A DNA stretch of 64,000 bases, from the IMG/VR virus record IMGVR_UViG_3300012662_000009, positions 94,647 to 158,646 of that record. One strand, 5' to 3'. Shown piece after piece: positions 28,462-40,180 of the stretch; positions within the stretch are counted from its first letter, which is position 1; each line of letters starts with the position of its first letter. The position numbers were made by a program, and so were the translations under genes. The notes beneath the pieces were generated by a model. It was not told where the DNA came from, searched no databases, and worked only from the letters and a program-made list of their open reading frames with translations. The DNA is from a virus (Duplodnaviria; Caudoviricetes).

Positions 28462-28536
28462 GGTCCTTTAGCTCAGTTGGTTGAGAGCAGTAGACTCATA
28501 ATCTAAAGGTCGTAGGTTCAAGCCCTACAAGGACCA
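28462..28536 (+). tRNA. tRNA with CAT anticodon, most likely tRNA-Ile2 (lysidine) rather than initiator Met
   Basis: Full cloverleaf GGTCCTT/AAGGACC, loop CT-CAT-AA; paired G1-C72, no three consecutive G-C pairs in the anticodon stem; CCA not encoded. Confidence 0.85.
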
Positions 28537-28602
28537 CTTAAAGAGTTCTTTGACATTGTTGTTGAAAAGCCACCATGATGGAATGGTAGACATGGCAGAC
28601 TT

Positions 28603-29263
28603 TGTTCAAAAATCAAACTATGGTATATGAAAACTATAAAGTATACGGGCCTTATTTAAATAAAAAAGATAATAGATTGAGATGTAATTTAGTCTTTAAA
28701 AATAAGATGAAAATAATTTCTTATCCAAAATATTTAATGGAGGTTTATTTAGATAGATATCTGGATAAAGATGAAACTGTAGATCATATTGATGGAAATC
28801 CTTTAAATAATGATATAAATAATTTACGCATTCTTAAAAGAAAAATTCATTGTTATAATGATGCTTATCGTAACAAAGATTTAAAAGTAAAATGTAGAAT
28901 GTGTAGGAAAGAATTTATTGTGAAGGGATCCAGATTAAATGATAGAAACAGACATAATTCTGGTTATTTTTGTTCTAAACAATGCACAGGAAAATATGGT
29001 GCATTAATTCAGAATGGAGAAATAAAAAAAGAATATAAGCCAAAAATAACCTCAGATAAATATCAGGTCAGGAGTGCACCCGAAGAAATTCGAGATGTAG
29101 AAGCGGGCTAATTCGGTGAATGACATAGGCCTTATAAATTATGTAGAACGCCGAGCTAAGTTGAATATGAATTATTCATAAATGTGTAGAGACTATATAC
29201 CCGCCTCCTAAGTTCTATATGAATATGGAGAAGACATAGTCCAAGTGCTTGAAAAAGCATATG
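28603..29263 (+). mobile_element. Group I self-splicing intron with homing endonuclease ORF
   Basis: 5' exon ends in U, intron ends in G; P (aattcggtgaa), Q (aacgccgagc), R (agagacta), S (aagacatagtcc); P3 gcggg/cccgc. Confidence 0.9.
28620..29111 (+). CDS. Intron-encoded HNH homing endonuclease with C-terminal zinc finger
   Basis: ETVDHIDGNPLNNDINNL...H; CRMC...FCSKQC; ATG at 28620. Confidence 0.88.
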   Translation: MVYENYKVYGPYLNKKDNRLRCNLVFKNKMKIISYPKYLMEVYLDRYLDKDETVDHIDGNPLNNDINNLRILKRKIHCYNDAYRNKDLKVKCRMCRKEFIVKGSRLNDRNRHNSGYFCSKQCTGKYGALIQNGEIKKEYKPKITSDKYQVRSAPEEIRDVEAG

Positions 29264-29324
29264 AAAATCTGCTGAGCAGGAATGCTCGTGTGAGTTCGAC
29301 TCTCACTGGTGGTACTATAAAATA

Positions 29325-29502
29325 GGTTATATAGTTTAATGGAAACAGAATAGACTTTGATAAAAGAGAAAAGCAATTCTAATGCTGTTAGAAATTATAA
29401 GTTTCTCCATTAGATAACCTTTTCGCAAAGATAATTCTGAAATGCTCCTGATTTATCAAACTTTTAGCAGGAGAAATACAAGTTTAAATCTTGTTATAAT
29501 CA
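29325..29502 (+). ncRNA. tRNA-like RNA with large D-loop insertion and expanded anticodon loop
   Basis: Acceptor GGTTATA/TATAATC+A, D stem GTTT/AAAT, stem CTCCTG/CAGGAG, T arm ACAAG-TTTAAAT-CTTGT. Confidence 0.6.
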
Positions 29503-29511
29503 CAAAATAAA

Positions 29512-29613
29512 GACCACAGGTGCGCAACTGGATGGTCAACGTAACTCAATAACACTTTAGGCTGTTATTTCTTAATCGTAGGTAAGAGTATGGTGGTAAC
29601 GAGCAGTTCCACT
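29512..29613 (+). ncRNA. Unidentified structured RNA motif, copy 1
   Basis: Hairpin-AACGTAA-ctcaata-hairpin-TCTT AATCGTAGGT AAGA-GTAT-hairpin; homologous layout at 29872-30014. Confidence 0.6.
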
Positions 29614-29616
29614 GAT

Positions 29617-29688
29617 GGTTCTTTAGCTCAATGGTAGAGCAATTGACTGTTAATCAATAGGTTATAGGTTCGAGCCCTATAAGAACCG
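29617..29688 (+). tRNA. tRNA-Asn(GUU)
   Basis: Cloverleaf, ATTGA-CT-GTT-AA-TCAAT, G73. Confidence 0.95.
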
Positions 29689-29697
29689 CGGATATAA

Positions 29698-29783
29698 GGA
29701 GGAGAAGCAGAATGGATTCATGCACCAATCTTCTAAATTGGCATCTGTAATAGATGTTGTGGGTTCGACTCCCACCTCCTTCA
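29698..29783 (+). tRNA. tRNA with UCU (Arg) anticodon and long class-II variable arm
   Basis: GGAGGAG/CTCCTTC, CCAAT-CT-TCT-AA-ATTGG, variable stem CATCT-GTAAT-AGATG. Confidence 0.85.
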
Positions 29784-29789
29784 CAAAAC

Positions 29790-29861
29790 GCTCCTATAGT
29801 ATAATGGTTATTACACCTCACTTGTAATGAGGTTATATTGGTTCGATTCCGATTAGGAGCT
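29790..29861 (+). tRNA. tRNA-Thr(UGU)
   Basis: GCTCCTA/TAGGAGC, CCTCA-CT-TGT-AA-TGAGG. Confidence 0.95.
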
Positions 29862-29871
29862 CAGGAAAAAA

Positions 29872-30014
29872 GTTCATGGTTGGATCCACCTGGAACAACG
29901 TAATACTCAATAGGCCCACTGAGAGGGAAAACTCGAGAAGAACCTCCCATGCACACTTGATTGGTCTGAATCGTAGGTCGGATGGTATAGCTGCACATGC
30001 CAGTAATAATGTGC
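29872..30014 (+). ncRNA. Unidentified structured RNA motif, copy 2
   Basis: Hairpin-AACGTAA-tactcaata-variable domain-TCTG AATCGTAGGT CGGA-tgGTAT-hairpin. Confidence 0.6.
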
Positions 30015-30020
30015 TTGACA

Positions 30021-30056
30021 AAAAATCCTCTGAAAGAAATTTCGGAGGATTTTTTG
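30021..30056 (+). terminator. Intrinsic terminator closing the RNA cluster
   Basis: aaaaatcctctgaa-agaaa-tttcggaggatttttt. Confidence 0.8.
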
Positions 30057-30140
30057 TGTCCTATACTAAATTTTTTAAAACCATTTGTTATATCAATACA
30101 TAAAAGAATATATAACTAACGCAGTAAAACCAACAAAGAT

Positions 30141-38824: not shown

Positions 38825-40180
38825 ATGTTAATAAAGAAAAAAGATGCCAATCCTAATTACTTAATGACCATTGTAAGGATTGATAACATCATACCTATTA
38901 AAAACTCTAACAATTTAATTAAGACCACTATCAATGGGTATGACATAATATGCTCTAAAGATATTCAAAAAGGGGATATTATGGTATATTTCCCATGTGA
39001 ATGTTGTATAAATCCTAAATATCTTTCTGCCAATAACCTATATGATTATTCAAATTACCGATTAAATTCCAATAAAGACCTCGTAAATGAATCGAATAAA
39101 AGAGAATTATGTGGATTTTTTGGTAAGAATGGCCGTGTGAGGATTATTAAATTGCGCGGGGAATATTCACAAGGATTTATAGCACCTATCCAAACACTTA
39201 TAAACACTTGGCCTGAATTAAAAGATACTTATTGGAATTCTTTAGTAGGTGCCCATGTAAGTCATATTAATGATGAATGGATATGTAAGAAGTATGTATG
39301 TAATCCTATAAACCAACCAGTTAAAAACTTTAATAAAGCTCAAAAGGCTCTTAAAAAATATCCTGAGATCTTAGGTGACTTCAAATTTCATTATGACACT
39401 AAACAACTCGGCGAATATATTAATGAAATATCTCCCGAAGACCGTATAACGATCTCTATAAAAGTCCATGGGACTTCAGTGATCCTTTCTAATATGCTTT
39501 GCCAGAAACCCTTAGGATTCTTTGGAAAATTCTTTAAGTCTTTAGGATTTAAGAAGATAGGTCAAAAGTATATGAATATATATTCCTCCAGAAAAGTTAT
39601 AAAGAATTTTAATAATTCTTCTTATTATGGAACTGATATCTGGGGATGTGTCAATAGAGATTTCGGACAATACATAGAACCTGATATGACTGTTTATGGT
39701 GAGATTGTTGGATACGAAGAAGGTACTAATAAATTCATTCAAAAAGATTATGATTATGGGTGTAAAGAAGGCACTTGGAAATTCATGCCTTATAGAATAG
39801 TCAAGAATTGCTCTACGAGGCCTATAGAATATAATGTTAATGAAGTTTGGAAATGGTCTTGTGATGTAAATAATCTTGAAGGACATAATAAAATCCTCCC
39901 CATAAAAGTATTATATAGAGGCCTTGCCAAAGACTTATATAAAATACCTATAGATGATCATTGGAGAGAAAATTTTATCGAACGACTTAAAAATGATCCG
40001 ACTTTTGGACTTGAATATGAAGAGCCTATGTGTATTAATAAAGTCCCTCGAGAAGGAATAGTTATAAGAATAGATGGGGATATTAAACCAGAGGCTTGGA
40101 AACTCAAGGCAAAATCTTTTTATGCTCGAGAAGCAAAACAACATGATAATAATGAAGTAGATATAGAAGAAATAAATTAA
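38825..40180 (+). CDS. RNA ligase (Rnl2/DRB0094-like) with N-terminal OB domain
   Basis: IKVHGTS, VYGEI, REGIVIR, WKLK; KLRGEYSQG in the N-terminal domain. Confidence 0.82.
   Translation: MLIKKKDANPNYLMTIVRIDNIIPIKNSNNLIKTTINGYDIICSKDIQKGDIMVYFPCECCINPKYLSANNLYDYSNYRLNSNKDLVNESNKRELCGFFGKNGRVRIIKLRGEYSQGFIAPIQTLINTWPELKDTYWNSLVGAHVSHINDEWICKKYVCNPINQPVKNFNKAQKALKKYPEILGDFKFHYDTKQLGEYINEISPEDRITISIKVHGTSVILSNMLCQKPLGFFGKFFKSLGFKKIGQKYMNIYSSRKVIKNFNNSSYYGTDIWGCVNRDFGQYIEPDMTVYGEIVGYEEGTNKFIQKDYDYGCKEGTWKFMPYRIVKNCSTRPIEYNVNEVWKWSCDVNNLEGHNKILPIKVLYRGLAKDLYKIPIDDHWRENFIERLKNDPTFGLEYEEPMCINKVPREGIVIRIDGDIKPEAWKLKAKSFYAREAKQHDNNEVDIEEIN

Follow-up and report, generated by a model that had tools for sequence, protein, structure and literature searches.

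Two structured RNAs in a phage tRNA operon

We analysed a window of 64,000 nucleotides (nt) from the Caudoviricetes virus record IMGVR_UViG_3300012662_000009, which is 158,646 bp long (G+C content of 31%); the window spans bases 94647–158646. Its plus strand carries an operon of transfer RNA (tRNA) genes in which two copies, A and B, of a structured RNA are embedded. The signature hairpin that the two copies share defines a real, covarying family of phage tRNA-array RNAs that is absent from Rfam, and A and B probably represent a divergent offshoot of it. The phage is a distant relative of T4: its large terminase is of the T4 type and has ~32% identity with the terminases of T4-like coliphages.

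An earlier note on this DNA had described two copies of one layout, with stems that diverge while the unpaired parts stay identical and with a compensatory change in the third hairpin. Direct reading of the plus strand bears out both copies and their coordinates (Table 1): hairpins 1, 2 and 4 are wholly different in sequence, and the unpaired blocks (7, 7, 10 and 4 nt) are the same. The window has just two occurrences of AACGTAA followed after 0–3 nt by CTCAATA (from 29538 and from 29897), against 0.01 expected from shuffles. In the whole genome, AATCGTAGGT has exactly two occurrences, those in A and B, and a hairpin of at least 4 bp around a ANCGTNGG loop is likewise confined to the two copies (composition shuffles give a mean of ~0.5 per genome). 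The alignment of A with B reaches 72% column identity, with the variable second domain as one large indel. This likeness goes far beyond chance, and A and B are paralogues; the 158.6-kb genome holds no further element of their kind. They lie in different reading frames and A contains stops, and both are non-coding.

One compensatory change is indeed seen in hairpin 3 between A and B, together with one wobble change, and covariation internal to the pair is thin because there are only two copies. The description of this hairpin as a 4-bp stem with a 10-nt loop needs correction: the first and last nucleotides of the supposed loop pair in relatives (as A–U, G–C and C–G), and hairpin 3 therefore has a stem of 5 bp that closes a loop of 8 nt, AUCGUAGG.

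Table 1. Coordinates of copies A and B, their parts and the surrounding operon. R1, covariance model of the family; MFE, minimum free energy.
Feature	Position	Strand	Description	Basis
Copy A	29512–29613	+	Structured RNA, 102 nt; 3′ end 3 nt before tRNA-Asn	Direct reading, alignment to B
A hairpin 1	29512–29537	+	GACCA/TGGTC around CAG-GTGCGCAA-CTG	Direct reading, MFE fold
A single-stranded motif 1	29538–29551	+	AACGTAA then CTCAATA; at site of family motif AWCGAAGAYAG	
A hairpin 2	29548–29569	+	AATAACA/TGTTATT, 8-nt loop	Direct reading, centroid fold
A hairpin 3 (signature)	29570–29587	+	TCTTA-ATCGTAGG-TAAGA	Top R1 match in window, 12.3 bits
A GTAT spacer	29588–29591	+	Immediately 5′ of hairpin 4	
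A hairpin 4	29592–29613	+	GGTGG/CCACT, 12-nt loop	Direct reading, centroid fold
Copy B	29872–30014	+	Structured RNA, 143 nt; starts ~10 nt past tRNA-Thr; operon terminator next	
B hairpin 1	29872–29896	+	GTTC/GAAC around TGG-TTGGAT-CCA	Direct reading, MFE fold
B motif 1	29897–29912	+	AACGTAA-TA-CTCAATA	
B enlarged hairpin-2 domain	29907–29964	+	TCAAT/ATTGG closing pair; abuts hairpin 3; inner fold uncertain	Direct reading
B hairpin 3 (signature)	29965–29982	+	TCTGA-ATCGTAGG-TCGGA	R1 match, 11.7 bits
B hairpin 4	29993–30014	+	GCACAT/ATGTGC, 10-nt loop	MFE fold
RNA operon	28462–30058	+	tRNA-Met, split tRNA-Leu, tRNA-like element, A, tRNA-Asn, tRNA-Arg, tRNA-Thr, B, terminator	
tRNA-like element	29325–29503	+	5′ of A; ~110-nt unexplained insert flanked by acceptor, D-arm and T-arm parts	
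tRNA-Asn(GTT), tRNA-Arg(TCT), tRNA-Thr(TGT)	29617–29862	+	Between A and B	ARAGORN, Rfam
Intrinsic-terminator-like hairpin	30020–30055	+	End of tRNA operon; A-run, 10-bp stem TCCTCTGAAA/TTTCGGAGGA, T6	Direct reading

A covarying RNA family in phage tRNA arrays

A strict three-motif pattern of A and B had no match in IMG/VR, a scan for the 14-nt AACGTAA..CTCAATA pattern gave chance matches only, among the matches listed, and a search by neighbouring protein led to two loci that carry neither tRNAs nor the element. A terminase search returned five related viral records. In the closest of these by terminase (G002; 61% identity, 37 tRNAs), the stretches of the tRNA cluster that were examined contain no such hairpin. 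The exact decamer of A and B occurs in another of the five, a distantly related phage (G005; 208 kb, 40 tRNAs), within a 103-nt gap between tRNA-His and tRNA-Leu and inside a CTCA/TGAG stem.

The pattern shared by the hairpins of A, B and this phage, TCTNAATCGTAGGTNRG, matches 102 loci in IMG/VR, which is the complete set. At least 27 of them lie within 75 nt of a same-strand tRNA predicted by ARAGORN, a similar number clearly represent this RNA with no called tRNA, and the remaining loci look like chance or coding matches. A second scan, anchored on the 3′ domain alone with the hairpin left free, recovered the same hairpin, with a covarying stem (CUAA/UUAG, CCAA/UUGG, CCGA/UCGG, CUAG/CUAG and CCGC/GCGG) and the loop ANCGUNGG (A-N-C-G-U-N-G-G). 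Twenty-one members went into the family covariance model, R1, with which at least 57 distinct ones were recovered at scores of 29–104 bits. Their source contigs range from less than 10 kb to 462 kb; a BLAST search of phage records with a family member produced one match, the uncultured 462-kb phage LR756500.1, and a scan of a genome collection found copies in two contigs of metagenome-assembled genomes, labelled rumen and marine.

The family RNA is ~105–160 nt long and starts with AUUAGYC or AUAAGYC. From 5′ to 3′ it consists of hairpin 1, motif 1 (AWCGAAGAYAG), a variable hairpin 2 that often carries CCUCU, hairpin 3 with its covarying stem of 4–5 bp and 8-nt loop, a CNNAG spacer, and hairpin 4, the loop of which (CUNRGGRUAUU) is followed by an A-rich stretch and is a partner in two pseudoknots. 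Covariation gives good support to this fold of four helices, a 3-bp pseudoknot and a second, long-range pseudoknot. All 57 members can form hairpin 3, with double changes in three of four pairs, and at least 14 different complementary stems form hairpin 4. The first pseudoknot joins the spacer to the first three nucleotides of the hairpin-4 loop; its middle pair is C–G, U–A or G–C, and the neighbouring purine–purine position alternates between A·G and G·A. The second joins motif 1, in which CGAAGAC is locally unpaired, to the 3′ half of the same loop. Its long-range pyrimidine–purine pair is C–G in 33 members, U–A in 14 and U–G in 6; in a strict subset of 49 these counts are 32, 14 and 3, with no C–A, and the adjoining pair is A–U in 47 and G–C in 2. 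Over the whole structure, including both pseudoknots, 92.6% of cells pair in the 57 members, compared with 81.7% after shuffling (0 of 500 shuffles reach the observed value) and 26–46% with slid partners, figures that overstate independence, given the kinship of the sequences and an alignment that had in part been fitted to the structure. The pairing pattern is consistent across the subtypes of the family.

Riboswitch aptamers, ribozymes and RNAs that bind core machinery typically show unpaired nucleotides that hardly vary, set in a frame of covarying helices. The family has both features, which makes it a good candidate for biochemical study.

Screening against known RNAs

The comparison with Rfam that the earlier note had proposed returned no family for A or B (Rfam 15, E values up to 10). 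At the gathering score only the four tRNAs were called. Even at the permissive limit nothing overlapped A, and over B the only match was tmRNA_permuted at 29759–29933 (13.5 bits, E = 7.3; gathering score, 47), a stretch that takes in tRNA-Thr as well, and this match is noise. Ten family loci, scanned by gathering score and by E value, gave tRNAs only, and a transfer-messenger RNA (tmRNA) elsewhere in one locus. BLAST searches of 50,697 phage records matched the tRNAs only, with noise for A and for the element of G005.

Several candidate assignments were rejected. No Rfam score came near threshold for membership of A and B among the hammerhead, pistol, hatchet, twister, T-box, tmRNA or Y-RNA-like RNAs. 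The earlier failure to fit the hepatitis delta virus (HDV), hammerhead and pistol consensus holds up: Rfam gave no match, and a simple, purpose-built HDV-like descriptor, run over 35 nt past each tRNA or tRNA-like end, gave 0 candidates. HDV-like and theta ribozymes form a nested double pseudoknot (P1, P2, P3, P4, with the catalytic C in J4/2) whose start is the cleavage site, at most 5 nt from the tRNA. For these specifically, there is no HDV-type Rfam match at E values up to 10, and the spacing of 9–10 nt adds to the blank descriptor. Homology with the T4 RNAs rnaC and rnaD looked plausible by eye, but both R1 with its filters off and a subfamily hidden Markov model (HMM) miss these two RNAs (L005 1409–1672). 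The coremin exonuclease-resistant RNA was set aside because its YGAD-loop hairpin 1, 10-nt spacer and hairpin 2 are found neither in A and B nor in the family; the heptamer CGAAGAC alone is shared. Complementarity of the loop to positions 341–347 of 16S rRNA, likeness to a tRNA variable-loop/T-stem junction and a CsrA-type site were noticed by eye and are given no weight.

Where the conserved motifs of the family turn up in literature text, the sequences are unrelated; one seems to be a tuf (EF-Tu) gene. We found no description of the family in the literature searched, where overlap with 10,006 unnamed candidates (PMC10690425) was not checkable.

Copies A and B within the family

Both copies have a hairpin 3 of the family type, with a stem of 4–5 bp and the loop ANCGUNGG, and they are the top two R1 matches in the window. 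By eye, the order of parts (hairpin 1, an AWCG-type motif, hairpin 2 abutting hairpin 3, a spacer and hairpin 4) and the overall size agree with those of the family, down to the 3′ strand of hairpin 2 in A, which abuts hairpin 3 as it does in the family. Both also lie in a tRNA array, on the tRNA strand and next to tRNA ends. The stretch that links hairpins 1 and 2 holds a second AWCGWAR motif, which is AACGUAA in both copies, AUCGUAGA in the element of G005 and AUCGAAGA in the family, and the inner hairpin of A, CAG-GUGCGCAA-CUG, resembles CUG-GUGCGCA-CAG at the same place in members of the L193 type.

The element of G005 (L159:5723–5826) looks intermediate between the main family and A and B. 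It aligns with R1 over the full length at 14.9 bits; it is compact, with two AUCGUAG motifs and CCUCU in hairpin 2, and its hairpin 4 is short (GCAG-CGGGUA-CUGC), with CCG/CGG pairing still possible.

A number of results weigh against reading A and B as a functional subtype of the family. Motif CGAAGAY is missing from both, which have AACGTAA(TA)CTCAATA and share only the AWCGWA part. Neither A (TAACGAGCAGTT) nor B (GCCAGTAATA) has the hairpin-4 loop CUNRGGRUAUU, and the CNNAG spacer is absent from A (GTAT) and B (TGGTATAGCT). R1 does not match them over the full length: its matches are confined to a 16-nt hairpin (A, 12.3 bits, E = 0.35; B, 11.7 bits, E = 0.52), and R1 and nhmmer taken together cover a hairpin of 16–21 nt at E values of 0.35–0.96. 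Because the covariance model and the profile HMM reach the hairpin alone, homology of A and B beyond it rests on layout. Analogues of the pseudoknots can be drawn (TGG/CCA and TAATAC/GTAATA in B, AACT/AGTT in A), but they are no better than those of shuffled loops (P = 0.23–0.55). The MFE z-scores of the whole elements lack significance (A, −0.24; B, +0.55), and the structure of A and B is backed by comparison, not by thermodynamics. Finally, other copies of the A/B type were found neither in IMG/VR nor, with a hairpin-plus-GTAT pattern, in metagenomes, where that one pattern gave four matches to a single unrelated, apparently coding stretch.

On balance, A and B are probably a lineage-specific, divergent subtype of the family, not demonstrated members. 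The possibly new class of phage non-coding RNA raised in the earlier note survives in part: the RNA is non-coding and outside Rfam and a covarying family was found, of which A and B are probably a divergent subtype, while the tRNA-processing ribozyme and the anti-defence decoy RNA that the note had offered as examples gained no support. The homologues with covariation that the note had asked for exist for the main family. As a natural ‘minimal’ variant that keeps the hairpin-3 loop and the general layout, the two copies point to hairpin 3 as the part of prime interest. The core nucleotides that are most conserved in the family are absent from them, so any activity that depends on this core would not carry over to them.

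Genomic context of the family

Family members lie mostly between tRNAs or just 5′ of one, most often tRNA-Met. ARAGORN calls a tRNA within 90 nt downstream of 22 of 53 members (Met in 9, Thr in 3, Pro in 3 and others), and many of the remaining members have downstream tRNA-like 5′ ends that ARAGORN leaves uncalled. In the clearest cases, 3–6 nt separate the end of hairpin 4 from the next tRNA. About half of the members sit directly behind a tRNA 3′ end, with a gap of ~0–2 nt. A and B begin 9–10 nt beyond the upstream tRNA or tRNA-like end; the distance of about 10 nt from a tRNA 3′ end that had been noted for both copies thus holds for B, behind tRNA-Thr, applies to A only behind a weakly called tRNA-like element, and fails as a rule for the family.

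Other members have a TAnAAT-like (promoter-like) box directly upstream, and their hairpin 4 is followed by a U-run. At eight loci a conserved open reading frame (ORF) of 185–195 amino acids, with the N terminus ...FNNGVAGK..., begins 25–45 nt downstream (L161:1296–1877, L164:2185–2772, L239:7187–7744 and five further loci). Three copies scanned gave no meaningful Pfam or PHROG match, and the product is possibly a protein partner or the ORF a regulated gene. Members with a box and U-run of their own, or with ORF neighbours, imply that the family RNA is a unit in its own right, and its 3′ end is set by either a terminator or a neighbouring tRNA.

Two further observations concern the neighbours of family members. 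The tRNA-Met that follows the L183 member (L183:4972–5046) has a C1/A72 mismatch, which marks the bacterial initiator tRNA. At a similar locus, L166, a tmRNA gene (Rfam, 86 bits) lies a few hundred bases away.

Possible functions

We favour, with about even confidence, the reading that A and B form a module of the tRNA operon, as diverged paralogues of an autonomous, stable RNA. The module would be co-transcribed with the tRNAs of the operon and excised by the enzymes that mature them. RNase P acting at the 5′ end of tRNA-Asn would generate the 3′ end of A, cleavage of the 3′ trailer past the upstream tRNA or tRNA-like end would generate the 5′ ends of A and B, and B would retain the terminator hairpin. 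Once released, the RNA would persist in a stable, folded form and act on its own, offering a putative conserved partner its invariant hairpin-3 loop together with the similar AWCGWAR strand that links the first two hairpins. We infer this course of transcription, processing, stability and action in trans; the hairpin-3 loop itself is the most constrained outward-facing part of the RNA.

Four other readings deserve consideration. In decreasing order of likelihood, the RNAs act in cis as spacers or leaders, are remnants (a reading that concerns A and B alone), form a ribozyme, or work as an attenuator. The first holds that the RNAs serve adjacent tRNAs in cis, in variants that guide or time cuts by RNase P, Z or E, block exonucleases and so protect the transcript, or affect polymerase read-through. 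We regard it and its variants as rather unlikely, if worth keeping in view. Most family members do lie 3–6 nt 5′ of a tRNA or in the gap between two of them, A directly adjoins tRNA-Asn, and the operon terminator comes right after B. However, adjacency to a tRNA is not obligatory, since an ORF follows the RNA at eight or more family loci and further members finish in a U-run without a tRNA; moreover, a double-pseudoknot core so well conserved exceeds the needs of punctuation, and the defining features of coremin, an exonuclease-blocking motif, are absent.

It is also unlikely, more so than action in cis, that A and B are decaying, duplicated remnants of a member carried on a tRNA cassette, with only the hairpin left intact and with motifs that agree through recent duplication and not through selection. 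Decay would suit the missing family core, the absence of A/B-type relatives elsewhere and the mosaic nature of the region, with its homing-endonuclease intron. Yet the four unpaired blocks are identical and hairpin 3 is compensatory even though hairpins 1, 2 and 4 have fully diverged, and neutral decay after duplication would not spare the unpaired blocks alone.

A self-cleaving ribozyme of a new class, which would trim tRNA transcripts in a role analogous to that of theta ribozymes, seems to us improbable. The compact double-pseudoknot core with its near-invariant unpaired nucleotides and the tight junctions with tRNA ends would fit catalysis, and theta ribozymes show the same bias towards tRNA-Met and tRNA-Leu neighbours (PMC10879173). 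Against this stand the lack of any match to a ribozyme family in Rfam, the blank result of the HDV-like descriptor at the 5′ sides of A and B, the stand-alone members with a promoter-like box and U-run, which have no target to cut, and the absence of the conserved core from A and B. A leader that senses a ligand or tRNA, as a riboswitch-like attenuator in which hairpin 4 doubles as the terminator, is highly improbable: the stand-alone loci do have the classic order of promoter-like box, RNA, hairpin 4 with U-run, a gap of 25–45 nt and ORF, but most members lack a U-run and lead straight to a tRNA, the hairpin-4 loop is among the most conserved parts, unlike an expression platform, and in the window the terminator comes after B, not after A, and neither copy leads to an ORF. 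For the family, the compact double-pseudoknot core lends catalysis and ligand binding some standing; its loss in A and B argues against extending these readings to the two copies.

Alongside the autonomous stable RNA that we favour, we entertain with little confidence the bolder idea that the hairpin-3 family, of which A and B would be streamlined forms, is a new RNA class that acts directly on tRNA transcripts or tRNAs. It might be a self- or trans-cleaving ribozyme, or its GGU-containing loop might dock on tRNA ends, in the way that RNase P RNA and T-box leaders dock on the CCA end. If so, phages would possess a means of their own to mature, time or protect tRNAs.

Other features of the operon and genome

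The tRNA-like element upstream of A has the acceptor stem GGTTATA/TATAATC and an unusual T-arm loop, TTTAAAT. ARAGORN reads 29325–29503 as tRNA-Gln(UUG) with a 90-nt intron, at a lowered threshold only (-i -ps90), and the Rfam tRNA model makes no call there. It may be a tRNA with an intron, a disrupted tRNA or an RNA built on a tRNA scaffold. The strong terminator-like hairpin that closes the operon was overlooked by a simple terminator scan, and Rfam gives only weak leader- or terminator-type noise over it.

Further upstream, a 661-nt group I intron (28603–29263) interrupts a class II tRNA-Leu(UAA) at 28569–29314. It sits behind U34, the insertion site of cyanobacterial and plastid tRNA-Leu introns. 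An HNH homing-endonuclease ORF lies within the intron (28620–29111). Rfam places Intron_gpI on 29060–29261 at 38.8 bits (E = 1.8e-8), under the gathering score, and the intron mode of ARAGORN detects the split gene with the splice off by 1 nt and under the name of tRNA-Phe. The tRNA-Arg(UCU) at 29698–29784 (87 nt; 50 bits with the Rfam tRNA model) carries a long variable arm, an uncommon trait in a tRNA-Arg of the bacterial type. Nine kilobases from the tRNA operon lies a gene for an RNA ligase of 451 amino acids (38825–40180; PHROG 968, E = 1.4e-39). RNA ligases of the T4 type mend tRNAs that host anticodon nucleases have cleaved.

Comparison with known systems

GOLLD and ROOL (Rfam RF01998 and RF03087) are, like the family described here, orphan, highly structured phage RNAs with no known function. 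They are often encoded near tRNAs and measure roughly 500–800 nt. The family differs from them in its size of ~105–160 nt and has no Rfam match at any threshold.

A likeness of another kind is found with coremin, in the sequence of which CGAAGAC occurs. The family motif contains the same heptamer, and both are small, knotted elements. In coremin, an Xrn1-resistant motif of plant RNA viruses, a 3–4-bp hairpin capped by a YGAD tetraloop is joined to a second hairpin by a conserved 10-nt spacer (PMC6546385). In the family, by contrast, CGAAGAC pairs with the hairpin-4 loop, and there is neither a YGAD hairpin nor such a spacer.

Theta ribozymes are minimal HDV-like RNAs that lie at most 5 nt from phage tRNAs, many of them beside tRNA-Met or tRNA-Leu (PMC10879173). 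Like them, the family comprises structured RNAs immediately beside the tRNAs of uncultured phages. A and B differ in their lengths of 102 and 143 nt, their distance of 9–10 nt from the tRNA and their four hairpins in a row.

A parallel in position comes from T4, where species 1 and 2 RNAs (rnaC and rnaD) are two small, stable non-tRNA RNAs of 139 and 119 nt (NC_000866 annotation). They too lie directly behind a tRNA at the end of a T4-type tRNA cluster, with a homing-endonuclease gene inside the cluster. The T4 RNAs have no detectable similarity in sequence or structure to the family, and they finish in tRNA-like ends of the T-arm or CCA type, a feature missing from A and B. To our knowledge, the function of rnaC and rnaD is still unknown. 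They are a precedent, though a non-homologous one, for such RNAs among the tRNA genes of a T4-type phage. Unexplained stable RNAs have been a feature of phage tRNA clusters ever since the T4 pair was first described, and a compact double-pseudoknot RNA now proves to recur beside tRNAs, especially tRNA-Met, in many unrelated uncultured phages.

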